Assembly: GCA_016699595.1 (NCBI GenBank)
Contig: CP064982.1
Span: 203,647 to 267,646 of the forward strand
DNA from: a bacterium
Lineage (GTDB): Bacteria > Patescibacteriota > Dojkabacteria > GCA-016699595
Direction: 5' to 3'
Length of the DNA: 64,000 nucleotides
Shown here: positions 40,701-58,039 of the stretch, in pieces
Position numbering within the stretch: position 1 is the first letter of the stretch
Layout: each line of letters opens with the position of its first letter
Made by a program: the position numbers and the translations under genes
The notes under the pieces: generated by a model
What the model was told of the DNA's origin: nothing
Databases searched by the model: none
The model's input: the letters and a program-made list of their open reading frames with translations, nothing else

Positions 40701-40779
40701 TTTTGTGAAATAGTTTTAATAAGGAAAATTTTTTGGAACTTTTTATTTTTAATTTAATAATTTTTTAACAAATACTACT

Positions 40780-41388
40780 ATGGAAAACTCCAACGAACAG
40801 TCGCAAGGACAGACCATAAAGTGTCCTTCGTGCAAAGAAGCTATTCAGCTTGGCGCAAAGAAATGCAAACATTGTGGCGCAGATTTGAGAAATTGGTTTG
40901 TTAGGCACAAAGTCATAACTGGTATACTGATTATTATTGGAATTGGAATTATTGGAAGCGCTATGGGTGGCAATGAAACAAAAAATACTTCTGACAGCTC
41001 GTCCACCACTAACAATGTACAAGAGGCTAAGTCTACTGCAGATGTAAAAGCTGAAGCAGACACTAAAGTAGCAGAAAGCGTGCCAGCTGAATATAAATCT
41101 GCTTTGAGCCAAGCAGAAACTTATGCCAACACAATGCACTTGTCAAAGCAGGGCGTCTACGATCAGCTTGTTTCAGAGTATGGTGGAAAGTTTCCAAAAG
41201 AAGCCGCACAATATGCAATTGATAATGTAAAAGCTGATTGGAACGCAAATGCGCTTTCTCAAGCAAAAACTTACCGAGATACTATGCACTTATCGACAGC
41301 AGCAGTTCGTGACCAGCTCATTTCAGAATATGGAGCAAAGTTTACAAAAGTAGAGGCAGACTATGCCATTCAGCATCTCAATGATTAG
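40780..41388 (+). CDS. Ltp-like protein: N-terminal zinc ribbon (CPSC...CKHC), TM helix, and two tandem host-cell-surface-exposed-lipoprotein (HcsEL) type repeats
   Basis: The repeats ALSQAETYANTMHLSKQGVYDQLVSEYGGKFPKEAAQYAIDN and ALSQAKTYRDTMHLSTAAVRDQLISEYGAKFTKVEADYAIQH resemble the phage TP-J34 Ltp superinfection-exclusion repeat family. GC is about 40%. Confidence 0.55.
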   Translation: MENSNEQSQGQTIKCPSCKEAIQLGAKKCKHCGADLRNWFVRHKVITGILIIIGIGIIGSAMGGNETKNTSDSSSTTNNVQEAKSTADVKAEADTKVAESVPAEYKSALSQAETYANTMHLSKQGVYDQLVSEYGGKFPKEAAQYAIDNVKADWNANALSQAKTYRDTMHLSTAAVRDQLISEYGAKFTKVEADYAIQHLND

Positions 41389-44471: not shown

Positions 44472-44792
44472 TTAAGCTATTGTTTCAGTTGATGACGGAT
44501 TTATGATAACTGGATGATCTTTTCTAATTATTAAGTAAACTATGAATCCAAAAATATTTCCTACCAAAACAGCTATTAGCCAAAGTGTAGCATTTTCTGG
44601 CATACGCTTTTTCGCGTCTCTATATACCCACAAGCAAACTACAATTTGAAAAATTAGCATAGCGATTATAAATATACAATAAGCAGCAAAAAAGAGTATC
44701 CCAACAGTATCTTCAGTATTTAAAGTTCGTGCTGAGACAACCGGAATGAAAAGTGTAAGTATTATTGTTGAAAGAGTAAGTATTTTTTTCAT
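44472..44792 (-). CDS. small membrane protein (3 TM helices), unknown
   Basis: ATG at MKKILTL. The tandem 33-bp repeats lie in its upstream region. Confidence 0.45.
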   Translation of the reverse strand: MKKILTLSTIILTLFIPVVSARTLNTEDTVGILFFAAYCIFIIAMLIFQIVVCLWVYRDAKKRMPENATLWLIAVLVGNIFGFIVYLIIRKDHPVIINPSSTETIA

Positions 44793-44983
44793 ATTATTAT
44801 TTCTCCACACTTAAAAAAACATGGAGTAATTTTTATAAAAGTTCATAAAATATTGTCTACAAGTCGAAAATTTCTTAGAAAATGACTTTGGTTTAGCTAA
44901 AAGCAGACGGAACAATAAAACCTATGTTTCTTAGAAAATGGAAAAATTTATCTGTTGATTGAATAGTTTCAGATAGGTGTTTA

Positions 44984-45080
44984 GTTGCCACCTGTTATTC
45001 CTGCAAATAACCTGTAATTACCACCTGTTATTCCTGCAAATAACCTGTAGCCACCACCAACTATTCCTGCGAAAATATTA
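44984..45080. repeat. tandem direct repeats, period 33 bp, about 2.7 copies; each unit contains the palindrome TTATT-CCTGCA-AATAA
   Basis: CCACCTGTTATTCCTGCAAATAACCTGTA(ATTA/GCCA) appears twice, followed by a diverged third copy CCACCAACTATTCCTGCGAAAATATTA. Confidence 0.65.
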
Positions 45081-45177: not shown

Positions 45178-45843
45178 TTAACCAATTTTATAACCAAATC
45201 CTCTACTAGATGTAATGATTTCGATTTTGTCTTTTTTTCTTTCAACCTTCCTTTTTAAGTTCTTTATATGTACAGCAACAGAATTACTTGCAATATCTGC
45301 ACTGATATCCCAAATATTATCTATCAGTTCTTGCTGATTGAAGTACTTGCCTTTGTGTCTGAGAAGTAATTCTAAGATTTTGTACTCTTTGCTGGTTAGT
45401 TCAATTTCATCATTATCAAGTTTTACAATTTTATTGACCGGATCAAGAGTCAAGCCTTGATGAGACAAAATAGTCTCACCACTTGTACTTCTTCTAAGTA
45501 AAGCACGAATACGAGATTTTAGTTCCTCAATTTTGAATGGTTTCACTAAATAATCATCAAAGCCACTGTCAAGATTTTCTGTTACTGTCTCAAGATCACT
45601 CAATGCAGTTAAAGCCAATATAGGAACCTTTTTGTTCTTTTCTCTTATTTTCCTCATAACTTCACTGCCTGTAAGCCCTGGCATCATTAAGTCTAAAATC
45701 ACCAAGTTATAATCATTTTGCCAAAATAACTTGTATGCCTTTTCTCCATCCATACAAGCATCGACTGTATAACCTTCTTTTTGAAGTGCTTCTTCAACCA
45801 ACATATTTATTTTGACTTCATCTTCTGCATAAAGTATTTTCAT
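45178..45843 (-). CDS. OmpR/PhoB-family two-component response regulator with no adjacent sensor kinase
   Basis: Receiver domain (ILYAEDE, phospho-acceptor D in LVILDLMMPG, K in YLVKPF) and a winged-helix output (ELTSKEYKILELLLRHKGKYF...RGFGYKI). Confidence 0.85.
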   Translation of the reverse strand: MKILYAEDEVKINMLVEEALQKEGYTVDACMDGEKAYKLFWQNDYNLVILDLMMPGLTGSEVMRKIREKNKKVPILALTALSDLETVTENLDSGFDDYLVKPFKIEELKSRIRALLRRSTSGETILSHQGLTLDPVNKIVKLDNDEIELTSKEYKILELLLRHKGKYFNQQELIDNIWDISADIASNSVAVHIKNLKRKVERKKDKIEIITSSRGFGYKIG

Positions 45844-45976
45844 AGTTTTGAAATAATTAATACTGTCATAATTTTGCAAATTAAATAGACAGAGTTAAAA
45901 AGATTTTATTAAATATCAGTGAAATTTTAGAAACTATTTATGAAGATTCAATGAAGAAAGTGTATTTGAAGCATGA

Positions 45977-46057
45977 ATACCGAGGACAGGACTTGAACCT
46001 GCATGCCTTTCGGCGCTTGCTCCTAAGGCAAGTGCGTCTACCATTTCGCCACCTCGG
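45977..46057 (-). tRNA. tRNA-Leu (anticodon UAG) with a long variable arm
   Basis: Minus strand: GCCGAGG-TG-GCGAAATGGTAGACGC-A-CTTGC CTTAGGA GCAAG-C-GCCGAAAGGCATGC-AGGTTCAAGTCCTGTCCTCGGTA. Cloverleaf with a 7-nt anticodon loop CU-UAG-GA. Local GC is elevated. Confidence 0.8.
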
Positions 46058-46107
46058 CAATATATACAATAATATACACTACTTAACATTTGATCGTGTA
46101 GATGAAT

Positions 46108-46860
46108 TCAATTTGAAAATATCTTCAATCTTCTAAAACCAGAATCTTCCTTGTTTGTCTCGTACTCTTCTTTTATCCAGTTTTTTCCATTTTTATCTAC
46201 ATCAACCCACTCCTGATCTGACAAATCTTCTGAACCTAGATTTGTTATTCGTATTTTACTATATCTAACACCATTTTCATCAAGATAAAATTTTGATGAA
46301 TGAATGTAAGTGATTTCATTGTTTTCAACTTTGGTAACTAGTGCTATATGAAATCCACCAGGAATAATTGAATGCAATCTTATCATATCAAGCGGTTGGA
46401 CTTCATCTAGTCTAATTTTTACGCTGTTTGATTCATTTGTCAAAGTATTGGCTGAGATAAATTCAACTTCCTTTAGAAGTCTTGAGAATTTGGCTCGAAC
46501 ATCATTATTTTGAAATTTCAAAATGTGTTTCAAACTCTTCATGCCTCTGCTCTTAAGTTCGGTGTTCAATATATGTGCGACAAATCCAGAACAATCAACA
46601 CCAATTCCAAACTTTTGCATAAATTCTCGAATTTGTGATTCACTAGAATTATTTAGATCAAACTTCATAATTTGAGCCCATATTTTTACTTCATCTTCGA
46701 TTTCGTTTGGATTTCCCTTTCCAACTAAAGTTCGCAAATCCATTTTTGTGTGTTTTGAATTAATGTAGTATGGACATCTAACTTTTTTATTCCCTAAATT
46801 AAGATTGATATAACCATCTATTACCTTTTCTGTGTTTTTTGACAATGATGAAATTTTCAT
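46108..46860 (-). CDS. NlpC/P60-CHAP-like papain-fold cysteine hydrolase domain protein
   Basis: GVDCSGFVAHIL (catalytic Cys context) and a downstream His in GGFHIALV. Confidence 0.5.
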   Translation of the reverse strand: MKISSLSKNTEKVIDGYINLNLGNKKVRCPYYINSKHTKMDLRTLVGKGNPNEIEDEVKIWAQIMKFDLNNSSESQIREFMQKFGIGVDCSGFVAHILNTELKSRGMKSLKHILKFQNNDVRAKFSRLLKEVEFISANTLTNESNSVKIRLDEVQPLDMIRLHSIIPGGFHIALVTKVENNEITYIHSSKFYLDENGVRYSKIRITNLGSEDLSDQEWVDVDKNGKNWIKEEYETNKEDSGFRRLKIFSN

Positions 46861-46862
46861 TT

Positions 46863-48200
46863 TTAGTTTATTAGCTCCAATTTATTTGCAATATAATCAA
46901 ACAAATTATTTCGAATGTCCCCGTTTTCATTTAGTGGATTTTCAGAAAAACTTTGCATTCGAAATATCTCCTGTTCTTCTTTTATAATGTGATTATCGTT
47001 TCTTTTGTGAATTTTGAATTTATCAAATTCTTTGTCTAACTTCAAATCAGAATAATTTATACTTCTACCTAAATAATTTCTGATTATAATTTGTCCAGCT
47101 TCAAAATTTGAAAAGTTTATATTGTTATAATTATCAACATCTCCAGAAGTATTGATATTGAAAAAACTAGCAAGATTTAGTTCCGACAAAGTTGGACTTA
47201 TATTATTTCTAAATTGCAACTCATTGAAAAATCCAACATTTGCTGTTTGTCTTGCATTTATTTCAATAATTTTAATTAAACCTGCCCCTTCATTATCATT
47301 CAGTATATTCATAGGAGGAAGGATCATGAGGTCAATTCCAAAAAATCCTTTGTAACCTTTCGTAGACATGAAATCTCCTAATTTCTGAATTAAACTTATT
47401 ATATTACTTTTAGTTTCACTATTTAAAAAACTTAAATCATAACTATTTCCTAAAGTAACTCCGGGATGCGGTGCGATTTTATTGGTATTATCTTGAATTT
47501 GACGATTTAAACCTCCAACATATGTTCCATTCCGAGTCACAATGCCATTCGCATTAACTGGGATGCCTTCTAAAAATTCAGTAACCTTCACCTCGGCATG
47601 AAATAGTTTCTCCTTAATTTCTTCCAAATCATGATTTGACTTTATTATCCAAGTGCCATCACCAGTATGGCCACGATTTAGTTGAACAACGATATGTTTA
47701 GAATTTTCATAACTAACTTGAGAAATGTCAGTCAAGTAAGTATTCGGAATGAAATCATCTAAGTTTGCATTTGTCAAAACATCTGTCAAATTAAACTTAT
47801 CCTCAAAGTATTGGCTAAGTTTTGCAGAATTATTCAATAATCTCAAATTTAGATCTTTGCATCTGTTTTCAATTTGAGGTGAAACTTTGAAGACTTGAAT
47901 GTATTTTTCTCCGTCAAAACTATCTATAAAGTCCATTGAATCAGAATTGTTCAAAAGTTCATTTGTGCTTCTGTAAATTGAATTATAATTCTTTGTAAAC
48001 TTTTCTAAGCAAAAATGTTGACCTGGATATTCTAAATCAAGTTTCTCAAAAACATCTGTATGATCGATACAAACAATATGAAAATTATCACTAATGAAGT
48101 TCAAACCCAAACCTCGTTCAGGGTCATTGCAAAGATAAAAAACATGATAATTATTTTGTTTTATGAAAGTGTCAATATTCAAAACTAAAGTTTTATTCAA
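46863..48200 (-). CDS. ATP-grasp fold ligase
   Basis: HIVVQLNRGHTGDGTWII and the C-terminal GFFGIDLMI...IIEINARQT (ATP-grasp E-x-N motif). TTG start two codons after the upstream stop. Confidence 0.55.
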   Translation of the reverse strand: MNKTLVLNIDTFIKQNNYHVFYLCNDPERGLGLNFISDNFHIVCIDHTDVFEKLDLEYPGQHFCLEKFTKNYNSIYRSTNELLNNSDSMDFIDSFDGEKYIQVFKVSPQIENRCKDLNLRLLNNSAKLSQYFEDKFNLTDVLTNANLDDFIPNTYLTDISQVSYENSKHIVVQLNRGHTGDGTWIIKSNHDLEEIKEKLFHAEVKVTEFLEGIPVNANGIVTRNGTYVGGLNRQIQDNTNKIAPHPGVTLGNSYDLSFLNSETKSNIISLIQKLGDFMSTKGYKGFFGIDLMILPPMNILNDNEGAGLIKIIEINARQTANVGFFNELQFRNNISPTLSELNLASFFNINTSGDVDNYNNINFSNFEAGQIIIRNYLGRSINYSDLKLDKEFDKFKIHKRNDNHIIKEEQEIFRMQSFSENPLNENGDIRNNLFDYIANKLELIN

Positions 48201-48206
48201 TCCAAT

Positions 48207-49223
48207 TTATATGCCTGAAATTATAATCAAAGGGTTTTTGAAATCCCATCCCTTTTCTTTTGCTCTCATAGTACCAGCAAAACTAGAAAGTGCATTCCAA
48301 GTGAGATCATTCAAAATATTGGCCTTATCTTCCAAGATCAAGTGCTGTGACAGTCTATCTAATGAAGCTTTGGATTTCTCAAGGTCTTCATTATCAACAA
48401 TCCAGGCAGTTCCAGAGGTTTCTAATACAAGTTTCGTGACAATATCTTTTCTCTTGGCTACTTTGTCAACAACACAAGTTACAAGACTTCCTTCTTCATC
48501 TATACCCAATTCTTTGTTTGTGAGATCGATTATATTTGACGCAATAGGTCTGCAAACAGGAGTTTGGATAATGTGAAATTGAGGCAATAAATGCCCCTCA
48601 AGATCAAGCTTTTCCTTCATTCCTTCATATATTCCCAATGTAGCAGTACCTGAACTGCAGGTAATAAAAATGCTGTCAAAATCTAAATTTTGTTCAAATA
48701 TATCATAAGCCAAACTTTTGTAACCTTCAATTGCAATGTCATCTTCTGAAGCTCGAAGATTCAAAACTTGATTTTCATTGCAAAACTTTACACAATCAGA
48801 TTTCGCTTTCGAACTTTGATGAATTTGTATAAACTCAGATTTGAAATTATTTAACTTTTCAAGTTTCCCAATATTCAACTTATCTGAAACAAAAATATCT
48901 AACTTAATATTATACTTTTTGCAGATATTTGCAGCAGCAATTGCAGCATTTCCAGAACTTGAAATTGCAAAGTGCAAATTATCTTTACTTCCAAATTGCT
49001 GAAAATAATATGAAATTTGATAAAGTAGAGATCGATCTTTAAAAGAATTTGTAGGATTTATAGTTTCGTTCCAAAATACCAAATTATCCAATTCAAAATC
49101 AATTTCTTTCAAAGTTTCAGCATTAAGATTAGTTACAAAATTAGTATTTGTTTCATCAAGCTCTAATTGAAACTCTTTCTCAATTTGGTATTTATAATTA
49201 TTTTGATATTTCCAAATGTTCAT
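48207..49223 (-). CDS. fold-type II PLP-dependent enzyme, threonine synthase-like
   Basis: INPTNSFKDRS (PLP-lysine motif NPTxSFKDR) and SSGNAAIAAA (SxGN[AH]). Confidence 0.6.
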   Translation of the reverse strand: MNIWKYQNNYKYQIEKEFQLELDETNTNFVTNLNAETLKEIDFELDNLVFWNETINPTNSFKDRSLLYQISYYFQQFGSKDNLHFAISSSGNAAIAAANICKKYNIKLDIFVSDKLNIGKLEKLNNFKSEFIQIHQSSKAKSDCVKFCNENQVLNLRASEDDIAIEGYKSLAYDIFEQNLDFDSIFITCSSGTATLGIYEGMKEKLDLEGHLLPQFHIIQTPVCRPIASNIIDLTNKELGIDEEGSLVTCVVDKVAKRKDIVTKLVLETSGTAWIVDNEDLEKSKASLDRLSQHLILEDKANILNDLTWNALSSFAGTMRAKEKGWDFKNPLIIISGI

Positions 49224-49330
49224 AACTTTTTTTGAGAGGTTGAATTATATTTGCAATATTTCCATGTTCAATTACAAAATGACTAACACCTTTAACTGTG
49301 TTTTTAATGTTTATACTTTTTTCATAACCT

Positions 49331-49372
49331 TCCGTCTCGCTCATAGCTCGACACCTTCCTAAGAGGAAGGAT
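49331..49372. repeat. member of a dispersed family of short GC-rich hairpin elements (CCGTCYCGC... + CCTTCCTAAGAGGAAGG)
   Basis: Related copies are at 53291-53325, 53723-53762, 54172-54196 (CCCTCCCGTGAGGGAG), 57361-57410 (inside mnmA) and 9659-9682. Confidence 0.5.
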
Positions 49373-49380
49373 TGTAATTG

Positions 49381-50331
49381 CTATTTCGTACTTTCTACCC
49401 TAACCCAAGTTTTGGCAAATGATTTTTTGATGATTTTTCTCTCCCAAAATATTTTTATCCAAAGCCAAAGTCTAGTTGGATATAGTAGCAAACTCCAAAT
49501 AAATTCCTTCACATTTTTTGCATATTTGATTGGATAAGTTGCAAGCGCAATTTCTCCCCAAAAACTTCGAGACTTATTCGCACTGTTTATTATACCAAGT
49601 TCGTGAAGTTGGACATAACCTCCAAGCGATCTAACTTTTTGTTTATACCAATCTTTCATATTTTGAGGATACTTTATTTTGCAAAGTGCTTTTTCTTCAT
49701 ATCCTATTTCAAATCCAAGTTCCTTTATTTTATAACTCATCCAAGCGTCATCTGAAAGTACTTCTGAAGGTAATTCTAATTTGAAATTTCTCATCATGAA
49801 ATTGTAGCCTGAAACTGGGAAAAACTTATTACTTTCGCTTTTTCGAACTCTAACTTCATTTGCAGTGTCGGCAAGCAAATTTCCCCAATATCCAAATAAT
49901 GTATTTTTTTCATCAGCTGATATTGGATGACCTGTAACTGCACCAAGTTTATCATTAGATTTCAATTTATTGTGAAGATCAACTATAGCATTTTCGGATA
50001 AGTAAGTCAGATCACCATCAGTCAAAAATAAAAACTCACCTTTTGCGATTTTGAAGCATTGATTTAGTGCAGCAGGTTTTCCTTTTTTTTCGTCTTTGAT
50101 ATGGATGAAGTTATTTTCTAAACCTCCAGTCCTCCACTTTGTGGAATCTACTCTACTTGACAGCATTTTAATTTCATACATTGCTGCATTATATGTTTCA
50201 TCATCTGGACAAGCTAAGATTAGTTCAAAGTTATCTTGGAAATAGTTTAGAAAAGTAGGATTTAGTATGCAAGAGATCAAGTTTCCTATAGTTTTTTCTT
50301 CGCGCCAAGCAGTGATAATAATTGAAAGCAT
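49381..50331 (-). CDS. family 2 glycosyltransferase
   Basis: N-terminal GT-A fold with GKPAALNQ and DxD in LTDGDL. Confidence 0.7.
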   Translation of the reverse strand: MLSIIITAWREEKTIGNLISCILNPTFLNYFQDNFELILACPDDETYNAAMYEIKMLSSRVDSTKWRTGGLENNFIHIKDEKKGKPAALNQCFKIAKGEFLFLTDGDLTYLSENAIVDLHNKLKSNDKLGAVTGHPISADEKNTLFGYWGNLLADTANEVRVRKSESNKFFPVSGYNFMMRNFKLELPSEVLSDDAWMSYKIKELGFEIGYEEKALCKIKYPQNMKDWYKQKVRSLGGYVQLHELGIINSANKSRSFWGEIALATYPIKYAKNVKEFIWSLLLYPTRLWLWIKIFWERKIIKKSFAKTWVRVESTK

Positions 50332-50358
50332 ATCGAAATTATAGCAGAAAAGGAAAAT

Positions 50359-50661
50359 TTATTTTTCCTTGCAACGTTGTGTTCCCAACCGCACACCTAA
50401 CCCATCAACTTGTGCGGAATCTACTTCATTAGCTGCTAGTCCATAACTTCCAGGTTTACTGTCTGCCCAGGTTGTAATACCTAAAGCACCGTTGCCTTGC
50501 CTATAGAAAGCAACATTATCACCCCATGGAATACAATTCTCACCTGAAGTAATCTTGCGAGCTTCATTAAAGTACCTTACTTCTCGGATTACAGCTAAAC
50601 CTAATTCTGCACACATAACTATCACAATAACAGAGTTAAATATATTCTTGAACTTTCCCAT
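50359..50661 (-). CDS. small secreted protein (100 aa), GC-rich relative to its neighbours
   Basis: Hydrophobic N-terminus MGKFKNIFNSVIVIVMCAELGLAVI, Gly/Ala-rich mature part, 3 Cys. GC about 45%. Confidence 0.45.
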   Translation of the reverse strand: MGKFKNIFNSVIVIVMCAELGLAVIREVRYFNEARKITSGENCIPWGDNVAFYRQGNGALGITTWADSKPGSYGLAANEVDSAQVDGLGVRLGTQRCKEK

Positions 50662-50724
50662 ATCCTATTATATCACTTCTCTATCATTTGTCAAACATTT
50701 TTTGTTTGTGCTAAAATTTGGCAA

Positions 50725-53277
50725 ATGTCTACACCAAAACTTACAGCAGAACAGCAATATTTAGATCTGAAATCAAAATACCCTGATTGTATCTTATTTT
50801 TTCGTATGGGAGATTTTTACGAAGTTTTTGATAATGATGCTCGTGAAATGAGTAAAGTTTTAGGTTTAACTTTGACAAGTCGAGATAAAGGTGAGAAAAA
50901 ACGACCAATGGCTGGAATTCCACATCACGCGCTGAACCAATATTTAGGAAAAATTGTAAATTTAGGTTACAAAGTTGCAATTGCTGAGCAAATGGAAGAT
51001 GCCAAGTTTGCCAAGGGAATCGTGAAAAGGGAAGTTACAAAAGTTGTAACAGCAGGAACTTTGATTGACGAGAAAAATTTACAAGAACAAGAATCAAACT
51101 TTATTCTAGCTTTGAATTATTCTAAGTATAAAAACAGTATTGTTTGGGGTTTGAGTTATCTTGAACTTTCAACTGGAGAATTCAAACTTATAGAACTTGA
51201 AACTAGTCAAAATTATTTAGCTCAAAATAAACTACCAAGTAAAATAATTGACAAAATTTCAACTTTGCAACCAAGAGAAATATTACTTCCAGAAAAACTG
51301 AAGTACTTCCTTACTCCGATCATCCAAACAAGACTTACTTTGATCGAAGAATTCCAGTTTGACTTTGATATAAGCTATAAAAATATAATCCAACATTTCA
51401 AACTTGCAAATTTAGTTGGATTTGGTATTGAAAATTATAAAATTGCAATTGGTGCAGCTGGAGTTATATTGAATTATGTCAAAACTAGTGAAAAAACTGA
51501 ACTTAGCCATATCACAAAACTAGTTTTTGATAACTTTTCAGAAAATATGAATTTTGACTTTGCAACTATACGAAGTCTGGAACTTATTGAACCTATAAAT
51601 TTATCAAACTTAAATTCAGATAAACCTACTACTTTGCTTGGAGTTTTGGATAAAACTAAAACTCCGATGGGAAAAAGACTGATTCGAAGTTGGGTTTTGA
51701 AACCTTTGACAAATTTAGCTCAAATCCAAAATAGACTTGATAATGTCGAAAACTTTTTGAAACTAGATAATGATAATAAATTAGTTATTTCAAATTCGCT
51801 GGATAATATTTATGATATAGAGCGAATTTGCGGAAGAATTGGACTTCAAACAATTTCACCGAAAGATTTTGTAGCACTAGATGGTTCTATATCTGAAATA
51901 TTAAATTTAATTCAAACTTAAACTAAATTAAATTCTGAAAATAAGCAAGGCGAATTAAAAGAAGGTTTAATATTAAATAAATTAATTAAGTACTTTGATG
52001 AATTAAATATAATTAAAAACAAAATTAGCTCATCCCTACTTTCAAATCCAAGTTTTGAGATAAATCAAGGAAATATTTTTCAAGATAATTATAATTCTGA
52101 AATTGCAGAACTTCGAAATATTTCAACAAATTCAAAAGATTGGATATTAAATTATCAAGCAGAACAAATTACTCAAACACAAATATCAAACTTGAAAGTG
52201 AAGTTTAATTCTGTTTTTGGATATTTCATAGAAGTATCAAATTCGCAAACTTCAAAAGTTCCAGAAAATTATATCCGCAAACAAACTATTGCTGGGGGTG
52301 AAAGATATATAACTTCTGAATTGAAAGACATGGAGCAGAAAATCTTAACTGCAGATGAAAAGTTGATTGGTTTAGAAAAAGAATTATTTCTAAAGTTTAG
52401 AGAAGAATTTATACAACATATTCAAACTTTGCAAAAAGTATCACAAATTATAGCAGAAGTTGATACTTTATTTTCTTTTTCAGAAGTTGCAAAGGAAAAT
52501 AATTACACAAGACCTATATTTACTGAAAAATCGCAAGTACTAGCTATTACTTCAAATCGTCATCCAGTAGTTGAAAAACTAGTTGAAAACTTTACTTCGA
52601 ATGATTTAAATCTGAATAGTCAAAACTCAATGATGATTTTGACAGGTCCAAATATGTCTGGAAAATCCACATATATTCGGCAAGTTGCACTTTTAGCTAT
52701 AATGGCTCAAATTGGAAGTCTTGTTCCTGCTGAAAGTTGTGAGCTAAGTCTAGTTGATAGAGTTTTTACTCGAGTTGGAGCAAGTGATAATTTGTCAAAA
52801 GGTGAATCAACTTTCATGGTTGAAATGAATGAAACTGCAAATATTTTGAATAATGCGACTTCAAATTCACTTTTGATTTTAGATGAAATTGGACGAGGAA
52901 CTTCGACTTTTGATGGAGTTGCTATAGCTTGGTCAGTCATGAAGTATATTTACGAAAATCTGAAGTGCAGAACTTTGTTTGCAACGCACTATCTAGAACT
53001 TACTGAACTTGAGAAAAAGTATGATGGTATTTCAAATTATTCCGTTCAAATTGCTGAAAAAAATGATCAAGTGATTTTTATGCATAAAATAATTCCTGGT
53101 AAAGCGCAGAAATCTTTCGGGGTTCATGTTGCAGAAATTGCAGGAATGCCAAATGAAGTTATAAATAATGCTAAGGAAATTTTGAAATCTTTTGAAGATA
53201 GTCAAAATAAAGTCAAAAAGGTAGTAAATAAAAAAATAAATTCAGAAAAAATTCCTCAAATGGGATTGTTTGAGTAA
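50725..53277 (+). pseudogene. mutS: DNA mismatch repair protein MutS interrupted by one in-frame TAA at 51919-51921
   Basis: Track ORFs 50725..51921 (domain I, GDFYEVFDNDA) and 52192..53277 (ABC ATPase GPNMSGKST...DEIGRGTSTFDG) are in the same frame. The 270-nt gap between them translates without further stops into MutS-like clamp/lever sequence. Confidence 0.8.
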
Positions 53278-53342: not shown

Positions 53343-53762
53343 ATGATTGCAAAAAACAAACATATAATTTATAAACCAAGCATTAAGTTTGCAAGGCAGA
53401 ATAGAAAAATTATGAATAAGTATGAAGTTTTTGTTTGGGTAGCTCTGAAGATTCTGAATAAAAAGTATAGATACGGTTTTAGTAGACAAATTTGTTTTGG
53501 ACCATATATATTAGATTTTTATTCCAAAAAGTTAAAAACAAATATTGAAGTAGATGGTGAAACTCACGAATTTAGGGGTAATGAAGATATAATAAGGGAT
53601 GAATATGTAAAAAGATATGGAATAAAGATAATTAGAATAACAAATTCTGATGTTCTCAAATCATATAGCTTTCTTGATGAATATCTAAATCAAATTATAG
53701 TAAATTCTACTAACCTATCCGTCCCGCAAAGCGAGACACCTTTCCTAAAAGGAAAGGAATAA
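53343..53762 (+). CDS. DUF559 family (Vsr-like PD-(D/E)xK) endonuclease-domain protein, free-standing copy
   Basis: FSRQICFGPYILDFYSKKLKTNIEVDGETHEF...DEYVKRYGIKIIRITNSDV matches the DUF559 core (RQ.pIg.yIvDFy...l.IEvDG..H...D..R...L...G..viRf.n.dv). Bracketed by GC-rich hairpins at 53291-53325 and 53723-53762. Confidence 0.7.
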   Translation: MIAKNKHIIYKPSIKFARQNRKIMNKYEVFVWVALKILNKKYRYGFSRQICFGPYILDFYSKKLKTNIEVDGETHEFRGNEDIIRDEYVKRYGIKIIRITNSDVLKSYSFLDEYLNQIIVNSTNLSVPQSETPFLKGKE

Positions 53763-53767
53763 TTCAC

Positions 53768-54139
53768 CTATTGTCCCAATGCAACATTATTTACACTATC
53801 AACTTTGATACTTACAATTTTCTTGGAGACTTCTAGCTTCATATCACTTGCGAAATTTTGTAGATTTTCAATTGAAGATAAATTATATATCTTTGACTCT
53901 AATTCCTTGTTTTCGAGATTAAGTTTCACTTGCTGAGCTTGTAATTTTGTAATTTCCTCTCCTTTGGTTGCAAAAACAGCAAAAACAGACATTTGCATCA
54001 CTATCATCAAACTAAAAATTGCTATAGCAAGGCGTACGAGTTTGTGTTGGGCAAGTTGCTTTCTCTCGGTTTCTTTCCTTGTTTGTTCCTGAACTTTTCT
54101 TGGAATGAATGTTGTGTTGTGTTGAAAATAAAGTGACAT
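53768..54139 (-). CDS. ftsL: FtsL-like cell-division protein (single TM plus coiled coil)
   Basis: Sits downstream of mraZ-rsmH, has a TM helix LVRLAIAIFSLMIVMQMSVFAVF followed by a coiled coil. ATG at MSLYFQ. Confidence 0.55.
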   Translation of the reverse strand: MSLYFQHNTTFIPRKVQEQTRKETERKQLAQHKLVRLAIAIFSLMIVMQMSVFAVFATKGEEITKLQAQQVKLNLENKELESKIYNLSSIENLQNFASDMKLEVSKKIVSIKVDSVNNVALGQ

Positions 54140-54203
54140 TTTAAACTTTTTTCTTACCAATACTGACTTTTGTCGATCCCTCCCGTGAGGGAGATTATGA
54201 AAC

Positions 54204-55220
54204 TTACTTTTTTATTACGAATCTAAATTTTGCTGATCTTGATCTGTTGTTACTCTCAACTTCAATTTCATTTGGGATTATAGGTTGATCTTTCAGATCG
54301 TTGCCGATCAAACCTTGTTCCTCAAAGGATTTAAAAAAATGCTTTACAATTCTATCTTCACCAGAATGAAAAGTTACTACTTCAAATACTCCAAATTTAC
54401 CTAATACTTCAAATCCAGAACTCAACAATCCTTCTAAATTATCATATTCGCTATTTACAACTATTCTCAACGCTTGAAAAACTTTGCTATGCAAATTAAA
54501 CTTAACTGCATTATTTTTGCCAAAAGCAATATTTATTATTTCAACTAAGCCCCCTACTTTCAGATCCCGGTTGTCTTTAATTCTATCTTTTACCAGCTTA
54601 CAAAATTTGTAACTTCCTTTTAGATCTGCATACTTTTCAAACAGTCTCACTAACTCATCCACACTAGCCATTTTCAAAATATCCAAAGCCTTGACATTGC
54701 TGTTTCTATCTAATCTCATATCAAGTTCTTGATCTAAGTTTTGAAAACTAAATCCTGATTCATTATCAAGTTGATCAGAATTCAAACCTAAATCTGCAAC
54801 CATTCCTCTAATTTTTAAATTATTCAAAATATTATCTAGTTTCAAAAATTCAATAACTTCCTTTATTTTCGCAAAGTTCTCATTAACTAAGATTACTTCT
54901 AAGCCATTATTTAAAACCTTATAAATCAATATTTCAGATCTATTTATTCCGAAATACAATTTATCGACTAACTTAAATCCTTGCTTTTCTAATTCATTTG
55001 CAAAGTTTGAAATCGCACTTTGATCAAGATCAAATGAAATAAGAATATTCCCTAACCCACCCCGAGCTTCACTTACCCTTCCAAGGAGCGGCATTTTTTG
55101 CAATTTGCTAATTATACTTTGTGAATAACCACCTCCACCAAGCGTACAATCAATCCAAATCCCATTTTTTGAAAAATCAAGATTGTCAATTGCTTCTTTG
55201 AGCATTACAGGTATATGCAT
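54204..55220 (-). CDS. rsmH: 16S rRNA (cytosine1402-N4)-methyltransferase RsmH/MraW
   Basis: HIPVMLKEAIDNL...IWIDCTLGGGGYS (compare H.PVLL.E....L....IYVDGTFGRGGHS). Its start overlaps the mraZ TGA in a TGATG junction. Confidence 0.85.
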   Translation of the reverse strand: MHIPVMLKEAIDNLDFSKNGIWIDCTLGGGGYSQSIISKLQKMPLLGRVSEARGGLGNILISFDLDQSAISNFANELEKQGFKLVDKLYFGINRSEILIYKVLNNGLEVILVNENFAKIKEVIEFLKLDNILNNLKIRGMVADLGLNSDQLDNESGFSFQNLDQELDMRLDRNSNVKALDILKMASVDELVRLFEKYADLKGSYKFCKLVKDRIKDNRDLKVGGLVEIINIAFGKNNAVKFNLHSKVFQALRIVVNSEYDNLEGLLSSGFEVLGKFGVFEVVTFHSGEDRIVKHFFKSFEEQGLIGNDLKDQPIIPNEIEVESNNRSRSAKFRFVIKK

Positions 55221-55648
55221 CAGGATTTTATAACTTCAAAAACTTTGTTTGCTATTTCAGTTGAATTCATTTCATTCATTCTTTTACTCCATATTGTTTT
55301 GTCCCAAACTTCGACCCAATCTCCAAGTCCTACGAAATAAACTTCTTTTGTCAGATTTGCATAAGTTTTCAAATTTTCACTAAGCACAAATCTTCTTTGA
55401 CTATCAAGCTCAACTTCTATTGCAGAACCTATCAAAAATCTCCTTACATCTCTTACATCACTATTCAAAAATGGAACCGCTTCAAATTGTGAGATAAGTT
55501 TATTCCAGTTTTTGTCGTTCACTACGATCAAGCAATTATCATAGCCACGGGTCAAGATAAGTTTATTTCCAAGCTCATCGGAAAACTTTTTGGGCATAGC
55601 TATTCTGTTTTTGTCGCCAAGAATAGAATCTTGAGTTCCGATGAGCAT
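55220..55648 (-). CDS. mraZ: transcriptional regulator MraZ
   Basis: Two-repeat MraZ fold: RIAMPKKF...LILTRGYDNCL and RRFVLSENL...VYFVGLGD. Confidence 0.85.
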   Translation of the reverse strand: MLIGTQDSILGDKNRIAMPKKFSDELGNKLILTRGYDNCLIVVNDKNWNKLISQFEAVPFLNSDVRDVRRFLIGSAIEVELDSQRRFVLSENLKTYANLTKEVYFVGLGDWVEVWDKTIWSKRMNEMNSTEIANKVFEVIKS

Positions 55649-55821
55649 CACCACTTATCACCACTGGTAACCATTTTAGTAGTTTCTGAAAATGATGTCA
55701 AGAGAAATAATAGTTTTTTTGAAATTTTATTTTATTTGCAAAATGCAGTTCATTATAGTATAATTACTAAAATATTTTCTTTTTGCTATATGAAATTTAA
55801 TTCATATAGGATTTTTTAAAT

Positions 55822-56234: not shown

Positions 56235-57848
56235 CTATTGAATTATCCCTCTTCCGAAGCAAACTTCGCCATTGTAGAAAACTGCACTTTGACCTGAAGA
56301 GATTCCACGAACTGGTTCTGCGAAGTTTAGCTCATTATTTTCTAAGTTTAATGTTGCTCGAACAGGTTTTGCTCTATAGCGAACTTCAACTTCAAGATCA
56401 ACCAACCCACCTCGTCCTTCGGACACTCCTCCAATGGAGGAGAATAATTTTGAATTTATGAAATGAAGGTTTTCAAGTTGGCAACTATTTTTATATAACT
56501 TCGGATTATCAGTTCCTTGAACTACATACAAAATATTTTTTTCTAAATTCTTGCTACTTACAAAATATGGTTTTTGATGTGGCGAAATTACTTTGATTTT
56601 ATTCAGACCTTCTCGTTGACCTATAGTATAAAATGCAATCCCATCATGCTCACCTACTTTAAGCCCACTGTCTTCATCTACTATAATTCCAGGTTTATAA
56701 GCGATATTATTCCTCAAAAACTGAGCAACATCAATATCTCCTATAAAACAAATTCCTTGAGAATCTTTCTTTGTTGCAATTGGAAGTTCAAACTCTTCTG
56801 CTAATTTTCGAACTTCACTTTTTTGTAAATGACCAATTGGAAATAGTGTTTTGCTAAGCTGAAATTGATTTAGATCAGACAGAAAATAAGACTGATCTTT
56901 GTTTTGATCCAAACCTTTTAGTAAAAAATATTCAACAGATTTAGATTGATTATTTACATTAGCAAATTCTACAGTTGGGCCTTCCTGATAAGGAGGGTAA
57001 ATTTCGCTTTGCGAAATTTGGGAGGTTAAATAATTTTTAATTTTAGTGCAAACAATTTCAAAATTATACTCTACATCATTACTTTCAAATCTTAAAACAT
57101 TTATTCCTAGACTATTTAAATAATTCGTTCTTACTTTATCATATTCTAAACCTTCAGTAGTAAAGTGTTCTGCACCATCAAGTTCTATTGCAAGATTATA
57201 TTTTGAACAATAAAAATCTACTATGAAATTTCCTATTGGTTTTTGTCTTGTAAATTTATAATTTTCTAGTTTTGATAAGAAGTCATACCAAAGATGATTT
57301 TCAGACCTAGTTGCTCGTTTGTGATGTCTATTTAATTTTGTCAAGTTTGTATTGTAATTAACCCACCGTCCCGCTTCGCTGTCCACCTCCCTTGACAGGG
57401 AGGCCACCAAATTTGGAGTGATATTGTCAGTACTTGACTTTACTCTTGCATAATGTCCTGTTGCGATCATATCAGCGTCTTCCTCTAATGCTCTATTTAG
57501 AAAAGTTCCAAACTTGATTTTACTATTGCAAAGTATATCTGGGTTTGGAGTTCTACCTGCTCTATATTCATCAAAAAAATAATTTACAACTTGTTCTCTA
57601 TATTCTTTTTCAAAGTTATATATCTTCATCTCAATTCCAAGTTTGTCGCAAACTAACTTCACATCTTCTACATCCTTTTCCCATGGACAATCAGTTTGAA
57701 TTCCAAAATCTTCACCTGACCAATTTTTCATGTAAACTCCAACTACATTATCTCCATTTGATTTCAAAAGTGCTGCAACTACTGAAGAATCAACTCCTCC
57801 GGACATTGCAACGAATATTGTTTTTTTGCCGCTGTCTATAACATTCAT
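56235..57848 (-). CDS. mnmA: tRNA-specific 2-thiouridylase MnmA carrying an in-frame ~170-aa insertion that contains a complete DUF559/Vsr-like endonuclease domain
   Basis: PP-loop SGGVDSSV, ATGHYAR, then the insert, then EYFLLKGLDQNKDQSYFL (canonical LRGLD.NKDQSYFL) and GICFIGD. The insert contains FTRQKPIGNFIVDFYCSKYNLAIELDGAEH...GINVLRFESNDV. Confidence 0.85.
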   Translation of the reverse strand: MNVIDSGKKTIFVAMSGGVDSSVVAALLKSNGDNVVGVYMKNWSGEDFGIQTDCPWEKDVEDVKLVCDKLGIEMKIYNFEKEYREQVVNYFFDEYRAGRTPNPDILCNSKIKFGTFLNRALEEDADMIATGHYARVKSSTDNITPNLVASLSREVDSEAGRWVNYNTNLTKLNRHHKRATRSENHLWYDFLSKLENYKFTRQKPIGNFIVDFYCSKYNLAIELDGAEHFTTEGLEYDKVRTNYLNSLGINVLRFESNDVEYNFEIVCTKIKNYLTSQISQSEIYPPYQEGPTVEFANVNNQSKSVEYFLLKGLDQNKDQSYFLSDLNQFQLSKTLFPIGHLQKSEVRKLAEEFELPIATKKDSQGICFIGDIDVAQFLRNNIAYKPGIIVDEDSGLKVGEHDGIAFYTIGQREGLNKIKVISPHQKPYFVSSKNLEKNILYVVQGTDNPKLYKNSCQLENLHFINSKLFSSIGGVSEGRGGLVDLEVEVRYRAKPVRATLNLENNELNFAEPVRGISSGQSAVFYNGEVCFGRGIIQ

Positions 57849-58039
57849 AAGTTTCAATAATTTACACAAAAATTATACCACTTCCATAGGGGTTTAACTT
57901 ATTTTAGATAAAGTTACAATATTTCTCAAAAAATGCTTGACTTATACCTCTTTTTTGGTACAATGACTTTGTCAACCAACAATATTGTCTTTGACTATGT
58001 CATTCGATGATATTGTAGTTGGAAAATCTTTGGTTTTTC

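Follow-up and report, generated by a model that had tools for sequence, protein, structure and literature searches.

The gene cassette at positions 46108-50661 of the 64-kb stretch of Dojkabacteria DNA studied here (contig CP064982.1; the whole stretch is called the window) contains a three-gene module that recurs in many lineages of the ultra-small bacteria of the Candidate Phyla Radiation (CPR). Its members, all on the minus strand, encode a papain-like protein of the NlpC/P60 type (46108-46860, 250 aa), an ATP-grasp ligase (46863-48200, 445 aa) and a pyridoxal phosphate (PLP) enzyme of fold type II that resembles the threonine synthase ThrC (48207-49223, 338 aa). Judging from sequence comparison, the conserved unit is this trio, which is CPR-specific and widespread; it is regarded as the core because the three genes recur together across clades and the ATP-grasp and NlpC-like genes fuse, unlike the genes for a family 2 glycosyltransferase (GT2) and for a small protein that complete the cassette. 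In our estimation, there is about an even chance that the trio is a peptidoglycan-linked amide ligase/amidase/PLP module working alongside peptidoglycan-precursor synthesis in CPR bacteria. A more specific proposal, namely carrier-lysine chemistry on the tail of a LysW-like protein that is encoded beside the PLP gene in most relatives, is put forward only tentatively, and is rather unlikely to hold in this precise form.

Relatives of the module were sought through the ATP-grasp ligase, using one genome per GTDB species, and 449 loci encoding a relative were found in these species-representative genomes. The best 80 of the 449 all belong to CPR bacteria (Dojkabacteria, Magasanikbacteria, Gottesmanbacteria, Microgenomates, Paceibacter and others), some third-party annotation (TPA) bins among them being evidently mislabelled. 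For the neighbourhood counts, open reading frames (ORFs) were called in 89 loci including the window, with the window proteins and the relatives' neighbours as queries, and the loci were collapsed into 34 ATP-grasp clades at 50% identity. The NlpC-like domain is present in 80 of the 89 loci and 31 of the 34 clades, the PLP gene in 59 loci (28 clades), a LysW-like zinc ribbon in 51 loci (27 clades) and a small methyltransferase in 32 loci (13 clades). In the closest relative (L001, 69-76% identity), the PLP, ATP-grasp and NlpC-like genes stand in identical order. The trio is therefore co-conserved in relatives, and clearly is not a set of separate housekeeping genes lacking any co-occurrence.

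The connection between the ligase and the papain-like protein is the closest of all. The protein P0013 (739 aa) is an ATP-grasp-NlpC fusion, whose C-terminal part is 38% identical to the window protein over 250 aa. A HMMER search of 1.84 billion cluster representatives returned 685 family members, and fusions of 615-772 aa with the ATP-grasp part at the N-terminus and the NlpC-like part at the C-terminus account for 18 of the 148 best representatives (about 12%). Because of these fusions and of the synteny, the two proteins are, on sequence grounds, functionally coupled; the preliminary description of this DNA, which had likened the pair to glutathionylspermidine synthetase/amidase, was right to link them.

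The evidence for a role in the cell envelope comes from the gene context of the relatives. Clustering of neighbouring ORFs placed MraY within 10 kb of the module in 41 loci, Mur ligases in 29 and MurB in 27; MurA, FtsW, MurG and FemAB-like and ATE_C-like transferases were found among the other neighbours. The ligases were verified as MurC, MurD, MurE and MurF, and the MurE of L002 exceeds the equivalog cut-off for enzymes adding diaminopimelic acid (DAP; 406 vs 373). Homologues of MraW and MraZ flank the ATP-grasp gene in L061 and L082. Taken together, at least one peptidoglycan or division and cell wall (dcw) gene (MraY, MurA-F, FtsW, MurG, MraZ/RsmH) is nearby in 25 of the 34 clades. At least five different gene orders surround the module, including FtsW-MurG...LysW<PLP>ATP-grasp-NlpC-MraY-FemAB...MurE-MurC-MurB, MurB<ATP-grasp-NlpC-MraY-ATE-like-MurC-LysW<PLP, MurF-MraY-NlpC-LysW<PLP>ATP-grasp-FtsW-MurG and NlpC-MurD-LysW<PLP>ATP-grasp. 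Such variation of the order from lineage to lineage speaks against a synteny that was simply inherited, and the recurrence beside the module of MraY, Mur ligases, MurB, FtsW and MurG, in several arrangements, strongly backs the cell-envelope pathway that had been suggested for the cassette from the window alone. The glutamate racemase MurI was not found in about 92 neighbourhoods, an absence that carries no information, as murI frequently lies elsewhere in the genome.

Sampling from the LysW side (three look-ups) gave the order MurD>PLP<LysW>MurC<ATE-like<MraY<NlpC<ATP-grasp in L092 and in one further contig. In two Taylorbacteria loci (L090 and L091) from the same sampling, the NlpC-like gene is retained but the ATP-grasp gene is missing, and its expected site (L090/L091:14333-16198) is taken up by a Y1 transposase together with a diversity-generating-retroelement pair (bAvd + RVT_1). 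A protein of about 225 aa, related to ATE_C/arginyltransferases (GNAT-pair), is encoded between mraY and murC as a conserved feature of several CPR lineages (L074:6599-7327, L028:5092-5775, L002:17856-18545, L090:10189-10848), and is a candidate tRNA-dependent stem-peptide transferase.

The 250-aa papain-like protein gave no Pfam match at gathering score, including NLPC_P60 (PF00877) and CHAP (PF05257). Its AlphaFold2 model (pLDDT 89.3) has an NlpC/P60 protein (3h41) as best Foldseek match, with a probability of 0.99, followed by the glutathionylspermidine (Gsp) amidase of E. coli (3a30 and entries beginning 2io), CHAP proteins, Tse1 and PCAT peptidase domains. In an alignment of 11 sequences, D89-C90-S91 and H171 are invariant and H187 is kept in at least 90%; the catalytic Cys at the N-terminus of a helix is followed by the His and then by a third polar residue, i.e. 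in the papain-like order. Weak matches to PF00877 were obtained for five of the 11 family members (best E 0.0093). The initial assignment as CHAP/NlpC-like is thus right at the superfamily level. An N-terminal hydrophobic segment or signal peptide, as expected of a secreted wall hydrolase, is absent from the protein, and in the fusions it is joined to a cytoplasmic ATP-grasp enzyme; for these reasons a cytoplasmic location is proposed. On the basis of sequence and model, the protein is a cytoplasmic, distant and unclassified branch of papain-like Cys-His-His enzymes, and is predicted to be an amidase or transpeptidase.

NlpC/P60 enzymes typically cleave gamma-D-glutamyl-diamino-acid bonds. This specificity could point to salvage of host muropeptides, in which the papain-like enzyme would cleave imported gamma-D-Glu-DAP/Lys peptides, and the ATP-grasp and PLP enzymes would put the fragments to new use, or interconvert them, in building the wall of the epibiont itself. 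Such a route would suit CPR bacteria, which are devoid of most amino-acid biosynthesis, and the peptidoglycan gene context. On the other hand, the neighbourhoods of the relatives contain no recurrent gene for a transporter or for any other recycling function, and salvage would leave unexplained the LysW-like protein, the methyltransferase and the fusion of the hydrolase to a ligase. We therefore consider it quite improbable.

The ATP-grasp ligase scores well above the cut-off of ATP-grasp_3 (PF02655; 37.3 vs 23.2 bits), and its AlphaFold2 model (pLDDT 91.1) shows a complete three-domain fold. The structural neighbours found by Foldseek are PurD, an L-amino-acid ligase (3vot), biotin carboxylase, PurK and BesA (TM-score about 0.55, with E of the PDB matches between 1e-15 and 1e-12). 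A family profile compared with PDB sequences gave weak matches only (BesA, S. aureus 7r8p, CPS, PurK). RimK and tubulin tyrosine ligase (TTL) matched weakly and locally, with E about 0.3-0.4 (0.35 for RimK), and no Ddl, Gsp synthetase or microviridin (MdnC) ligase was matched at E<=1; likewise, the Pfam and NCBIfam scans gave no match to a Ddl family model. Grouping with the RimK, Ddl, Gsp or microviridin ligases, which the preliminary description had offered as possible affiliations, was therefore found for none of them by profile or structure comparison. The ATP-binding lysine K135 and the residues E313, N315 and R317 of an E-x-N-x-R motif are invariant in the family alignment. Because the catalytic residues are invariant and matches to subfamilies are lacking, the protein is, as far as sequence and model indicate, a catalytically intact carboxylate-amine ligase that fits into none of the characterised subfamilies. 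Translation probably begins at the TTG codon at 48182 rather than at 48200, since the N-terminal alignment with P0001 begins there.

The PLP enzyme is likewise well above its Pfam cut-off (PALP, PF00291; 96.1 bits vs 35). Its best NCBIfam matches are threonine synthases, all of whose equivalog cut-offs are missed (98.9 bits vs 421 for PRK05638; 41.2 vs 167.1 for TIGR00260). A profile of 32 sequences aligns over its full length with class II ThrC (6cgq, 3e-31; 2zsj, 4e-31), and more weakly with serine racemase (1e-22), aspartate racemase (4e-19), dehydratases, SbnA and cysteine synthases. The PLP-binding lysine K62, in the motif SFKDRS, is invariant, and the SSGN loop is conserved; each of the three window proteins of the trio thus has its catalytic residues intact. 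The column aligned with the Arg of the ThrC 'NPYR' segment, which we take to be the ligand of the substrate phosphate in T. thermophilus threonine synthase, is not Arg in this family; a near-invariant R157 ('NLRGS'), specific to the family, is located two positions before it. No genes of the threonine pathway were found near the PLP gene. A bona fide thrC was thus rejected, in keeping with the doubt raised at the outset about such an enzyme in an organism with minimal biosynthesis: because the equivalog scores are missed by far and the pocket Arg is replaced, the sequence evidence indicates that the enzyme is ThrC-like, not ThrC. Fold-II and ThrC-like enzymes such as SbnA and cysteate synthase perform beta-replacement on O-phosphoserine.

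The racemase matches bring to mind a non-orthologous replacement of Alr and Ddl by a racemase-like PLP enzyme and a dipeptide ligase. Fold-II PLP racemases do exist, and an ATP-grasp gene in a dcw-type cluster is reminiscent of ddl. However, a canonical Ddl (4e-63 to E. coli DdlB) is encoded inside the module's cluster in L053, and a canonical Alr (7e-42) near the module in L035. This co-occurrence means that the module is not a simple replacement for D-Ala-D-Ala supply, and in such a role a fused hydrolase would work against the ligase. The replacement is therefore largely refuted, and we regard it as very improbable.

In the relatives, the PLP gene is almost always divergent from a gene for a cytoplasmic LysW-like protein of 52-65 aa. 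Among the 28 clades with a PLP gene, 27 have the LysW-like gene, the sole exception being the window's own clade. The small protein passes the cut-off of Zn_ribbon_LysW (PF21344; 27.7-45.6 bits vs 27), and has four invariant Cys and an invariant C-terminal Lys, the tails reading ...[ILV][ILV]EEEK or ...VDEGK. The terminal Lys is the only invariant residue that is not a Cys. For this reason, and because a homologue of a lysine methyltransferase is co-encoded and a PLP enzyme needs a free alpha-amine or amine nucleophile, the terminal Lys of the carrier may be the site of the chemistry.

The methyltransferase, of about 170 aa, is encoded between the PLP and ATP-grasp genes in 13 clades. An N-terminal transmembrane helix is present in all of the 30 copies examined, and the best PDB match of one of them (L005:9504-10004) is the Sulfolobus protein-lysine methyltransferase aKMT (5fa8/5jwj; 2.4e-15, residues 26-154). 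Genes for a RimK-type ligase, a kinase or a reductase are not recurrent in the neighbourhoods of the relatives.

Longer variants of the LysW-like protein (80-126 aa; L044:7012-7254, L021:7730-8110, L060:4114-4389) are extended by an insertion between the Cys pairs but retain the terminal Lys (...EEEK, ...DMIK, ...VLEK). In one Dojkabacteria gene order, tRNA-Thr(CGU) and tRNA-Gly(CCC) lie directly beside the LysW-like gene (L016:4080-4279, L040:7977-8194, L013, L017 and L031 are among the tRNA-flanked loci). This adjacency may be plain synteny, although it is worth mentioning given the aminoacyl-tRNA-dependent Fem/ATE-like transferases in those clusters. A protein of about 348 aa (cluster c7; weak Fic and DeoR helix-turn-helix matches) adjoins the LysW-like gene in 22 Dojkabacteria loci, e.g. 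L005:6884-7930, and may be a further accessory or regulatory member.

These elements can be combined into a putative pathway. The ATP-grasp ligase, whose catalytic core is intact, would use ATP to join a carboxylate to an amine through an amide bond. The papain-like enzyme, judging from its fold and Cys-His-His residues, would hydrolyse or transfer an amide of the same kind through a Cys thioester; that a ligase and a papain-like enzyme should act on one amide has precedents in the bifunctional Gsp synthetase/amidase (GspSA) and in the TTL/vasohibin pair. For the ThrC-like enzyme, the reaction would be a beta- or gamma-replacement or of the racemase type, with an amino acid moiety bearing a free alpha-amine as the substrate. 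In most relatives the substrate handle would be the invariant C-terminal Lys of the LysW-like protein: the ligase would load lysine, the PLP enzyme, alone or together with the methyltransferase, would tailor it while on the acidic tail, and the papain-like enzyme would finally release it or transfer it. In a possible variant, another amino acid would be attached to the terminal lysine of the carrier. The product would enter the Mur-ligase/MraY pathway at MurD, at MurE or at the lipid-linked precursors.

In its strongest form, this proposal amounts to a new class of carrier, in which the genome-encoded C-terminal Lys of the LysW-like protein would be the working substrate in CPR bacteria. The PLP enzyme and, in the lineages that have it, the aKMT-like methyltransferase would derivatise the epsilon-amine of this Lys, giving e.g. 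a diamino-dicarboxylic DAP surrogate or N-methyl-lysine; alternatively, an amino acid tethered to the Lys amine would be processed, e.g. from L-Glu to D-Glu. Once set free by the papain-like enzyme, the product would be available to MurD or MurE, and the tail would be reloaded by the ATP-grasp ligase. We consider that a carrier of this kind is unlikely.

The main competing explanation needs no carrier. The module might branch or edit the stem peptide, with the PLP enzyme making a D- or non-canonical amino acid, the ATP-grasp enzyme ligating it directly onto an amine or carboxylate in a side chain of the UDP-MurNAc-peptide or lipid II, as Aslfm and its companion racemase do in Enterococcus, and the papain-like enzyme trimming or proofreading; the LysW-like protein would merely be a regulator or adaptor. 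This would account for the fact that, in several gene orders, the module adjoins MraY and Mur ligases, for the FemAB-like and ATE_C-like transferases nearby, and for the ATP-grasp/NlpC pairs that occur with neither a LysW nor a PLP gene close to them. A membrane-anchored methyltransferase fits a lipid-linked substrate, and PF02655 is the PylC type, which acylates the N-epsilon of Lys. The near-perfect pairing of the PLP and LysW-like genes and the invariance of the terminal Lys would, however, be left unexplained, and stem-peptide editing without a carrier appears to us an unlikely account of the whole module.

The composition of the tail would also suit a regulatory cycle similar to that of TTL and vasohibin, in which the papain-like enzyme would remove the C-terminal Lys and the ATP-grasp ligase would add it again, so that a small regulator of wall synthesis or division is switched by amino-acid or ATP supply. 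An acidic tail with a single invariant encoded end residue and the dcw/peptidoglycan context are consistent with this cycle, and the ligase-hydrolase fusion would imply opposing reactions on one bond. Yet the cycle has no place for the tightly linked ThrC-like PLP enzyme, and the ATP-grasp ligase is not TTL- or RimK-like; a regulatory cycle thus seems distinctly unlikely.

Several observations weigh against the peptidoglycan-linked amide module, and in particular against its carrier version. All the steps proposed above are predicted from genes and models. In absolute terms, the Foldseek match to the papain fold is weak (E 5e-3 to 0.1, TM-score about 0.27), and the ATP-grasp ligase falls outside the RimK/LysX/TTL type, for which action on protein tails is known. 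The loci were picked via the ATP-grasp gene and are phylogenetically related, so their counts do not represent independent events, and in several clades (L007, L043, L059, L061, L082 and L084) the ATP-grasp/NlpC pair has neither a PLP nor a LysW gene within 10 kb. A profile search retrieved 1640 LysW-like proteins, the best 120 of which all end in K (EEEK in 72, DEGK in 37), a uniformity that may be overstated, since the tail itself can serve as a seed for the word index; no IPJ91_ locus tag, the tag of the genome under study, is found among these best 120. Within the 64-kb window, six-frame hidden Markov model (HMM) and motif searches detected no LysW-like ORF or remnant, and a homology search detected no aKMT-like methyltransferase. 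Moreover, the window's only peptidoglycan or dcw neighbours are mraZ, rsmH and ftsL, 3 kb off.

The sole marginal match to the LysW HMM in the window (E 0.005) is a 202-aa plus-strand ORF in the 40753-41388 region, which begins with a CxxC...CxxC zinc ribbon followed by a transmembrane segment, and is not Lys-terminal. The same region stands out for its GC content (about 42% vs 32%) and for ORFs overlapping on both strands. The window copy is therefore an incomplete version of the system, with carrier and methyltransferase not within 64 kb, and this limits what can be concluded for this organism. Since the window has the trio and no LysW-like gene, the trio evidently persists without a carrier nearby.

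As regards the remainder of the cassette, ORF calling verified five minus-strand ORFs within 46108-50661, and the co-directional arrangement beside tRNA-Leu(UAG), the coordinates and the anticodon all proved correct. The products carry the GenBank locus tags IPJ91_01300-01320 (QQR93778-93780), and their nearest homologues are from Candidatus Dojkabacteria and other CPR/Patescibacteria. The five genes are separated by 2, 6, 157 and 27 nt. As a unit of five, however, the cassette held only in part: three genes are conserved, whereas GT2 homologues are found near the module in only 6 of the 89 loci (L001, L033, L047, L050, L063 and the window; 2 of 34 clades), in some cases between Mur ligase genes, and the small protein is confined to the window. 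The accessory GT2 gene (49381-50331, minus strand, 316 aa) encodes a protein above the Pfam cut-offs (PF00535, 37.5 vs 23.3; PF13632, 30 vs 27; PF13641, 28.8 vs 27), so that the ATP-grasp, fold-II PLP and GT2 assignments made initially all stand; its match to a PgaC/IcaA-like model is weak (63 bits vs a cut-off of 422).

The small membrane-anchored or secreted protein (50359-50661, minus strand, 100 aa; IPJ91_01320, QQR93780.1), which falls outside the conserved module, gave no family match in the Pfam and NCBIfam scans and no homologue in any of the 88 related loci; one near-identical Logan contig was found. It had been introduced as a GC-rich, secreted, Gly/Ala-rich protein. The GC content of its ORF is indeed high (39.9% vs 32.3% for the window, in the top 3.5% of 303-nt windows) and an N-terminal hydrophobic helix is present, but a Gly+Ala content of 21% makes the last attribute a weak one.

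The genes for GT2 and the small protein, both of them lineage-specific additions, probably form a transcription unit separate from the core trio, as suggested by sequence signals: a strong promoter precedes the small ORF, and the 157-nt gap between the GT2 and PLP genes (49224-49380, minus strand) bears a promoter-like site (49271..49244) and a hairpin (49354-49370), both consensus matches only. The former promoter is a sigma-70 consensus match at 50667-50694 (minus strand), TTGACA-16-TATAAT with an extended TG, agreeing at 12 of 12 positions. Only 6 nt separate the end of this perfect consensus from the start codon (ATG) of the small ORF, which suggests a leaderless transcript.

The co-directional packing of the genes and the strong promoter before the small ORF could also be those of a pathway for a ribosomally synthesised and post-translationally modified peptide or another small molecule, with the small GC-rich protein as the precursor, as proposed earlier, and GT2 as a tailoring enzyme. 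This explanation is highly improbable. The small protein is found in none of the 88 related loci and GT2 in only 6, the recurrent partner being instead the LysW-like zinc ribbon; the promoter/hairpin gap parts GT2 from the core, and the ATP-grasp ligase is not of the microviridin type. Since neither is co-conserved, the small protein as precursor and GT2 as a core member were both rejected.

The cassette was further considered as a mobile element. A phage or defence origin was discarded, as PADLOC gave no defence match for the cassette and the only PHROG match was a single weak one, to the PLP enzyme. A tRNA-linked island was discarded as well. The tRNA-Leu gene (45977-46059, minus strand; anticodon UAG), 48 nt past the last ORF, is a neighbour and not a functional part: its adjacency, real in the window, is shared elsewhere only by the closest relative L001, and a composition scan of the window (GC about 32%) showed unremarkable values across the core genes. 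The other features reported past the tRNA are both real, i.e. an OmpR-type response regulator (45178-45879) and a 33-bp tandem repeat (44988-45070; 2.5 copies, 88% matches), which lies between the regulator gene and a gene for a PLDc_N-like small membrane protein (44472-44810).

On the other side of the cassette, about 3 kb upstream and on the same strand, is the head of a dcw cluster (53768-55654), consisting of genes for an FtsL/DivIC-like protein (53768-54160; weak DivIC Pfam match), RsmH/MraW (54204-55220; Methyltransf_5, 195.7 bits) and MraZ (55220-55654; Pfam MraZ, 85.6 bits). Between the two is mutS (50725-53277, plus strand), whose divergent start is 63 nt from the ATG of the 100-aa ORF. 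It is broken by one in-frame TAA (51922-51924) into ORFs of 398 and 361 aa, and the reading frame is unchanged beyond the stop; the split could reflect a pseudogene, a sequencing error or programmed read-through. A stand-alone DUF559 ORF (53343-53762, plus strand) lies directly downstream of mutS. A second DUF559 domain (Vsr-like endonuclease) is inserted at residues 183-281 of an MnmA-type tRNA 2-thiouridylase (56235-57869, minus strand), between the HUP and PRC-barrel domains, and looks like a mobile endonuclease domain nested in a housekeeping gene.

To our knowledge, CPR bacteria make up a large share of bacterial diversity, almost none of them has been cultured, and their wall chemistry has not been measured. 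The gene set described here is conserved across many CPR lineages among murA-F, mraY, ftsW and murG, and comprises enzyme families foreign to the textbook pathway. The embedding of such families among peptidoglycan genes implies an extra or alternative step in precursor synthesis. A Lys-tailed LysW-like protein acting with a PLP enzyme and a methyltransferase homologue would extend carrier chemistry beyond the Glu-tailed LysW and, if the new-carrier proposal is true, would reveal, for a large part of bacterial diversity, a peptidoglycan building block, or a way of supplying one, that has not been known until now. Because the proteins are small and soluble, the methyltransferase having a single membrane anchor, the hypothesis is directly testable in vitro.

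Full-text literature searches returned no description of a K-tailed LysW-like protein or of such a gene set, no ATP-grasp-NlpC/P60 fusions in CPR peptidoglycan clusters, and nothing relevant on the Ddl/MurI status of CPR bacteria. One close parallel is the LysW system (LysW/LysX/LysZ/LysY/LysJ/LysK of Thermus and archaea; AmCP in Streptomyces). There, as in the CPR relatives, genes for an ATP-grasp ligase, a PLP enzyme and a hydrolase accompany that of a zinc-ribbon carrier with an acidic tail, and the shared logic would be to load, tailor and release. The components nevertheless differ. The known tail ends in Glu (EDWGE), that of the CPR relatives in an invariant Lys (EEEK/DEGK). The RimK/LysX-type ligase is replaced by one of another type, the fold I aminotransferase by a fold II ThrC-like enzyme, and the M20 metallopeptidase by a papain-like hydrolase. 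LysZ and LysY are missing, the module is set among peptidoglycan genes, and in the window the carrier gene is missing as well.

GspSA and trypanothione synthetase share with the CPR module a papain-like (CHAP) Cys amidase fused to a carboxylate-amine ligase, the two opposing each other on one amide. In the CPR fusions the order is reversed, with the ligase at the N-terminus, there is no sequence match to Gsp synthetase, and the partners are a PLP enzyme, a LysW-like protein and peptidoglycan genes. Glutathione/spermidine metabolism is not expected in CPR bacteria. In the TTL/vasohibin and RimK/S6 systems, an ATP-grasp enzyme (together with a Cys peptidase in the case of tubulin) acts on the last residue of an encoded acidic ...EE(X) tail; here the match is only weak and local, and the CPR set adds a PLP enzyme and a methyltransferase in a bacterial wall setting.

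Described function provides a further likeness, with Aslfm and the aspartate racemase of Enterococcus faecium and with PylC, where an ATP-grasp enzyme acylates the epsilon-amine of Lys and a companion enzyme supplies the unusual or D-amino acid, the substrate of Aslfm being a peptidoglycan precursor. The racemase there is PLP-independent, however, and those systems have neither a papain-like partner nor a carrier. Class II ThrC, of which cysteate synthase is a repurposed homologue, aligns with the PLP enzyme over the full length (about 1e-31) and shares SFKDR and SSGN, whereas the scores are far below the equivalog cut-offs, and the 'NPYR' Arg is not kept, R157 being found instead. Finally, the published analogy that comes nearest is that of archaeal pseudomurein clusters, which contain an uncharacterised non-Ddl ATP-grasp gene beside MraY-like and Mur-type ligase genes (PMC11915815), a likeness of gene context in which no papain-like, PLP or LysW-like partners are reported. 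All the folds of the CPR module are known, and its architecture echoes both the LysW carrier systems and GspSA; there is a real chance that it represents a new type of pathway.

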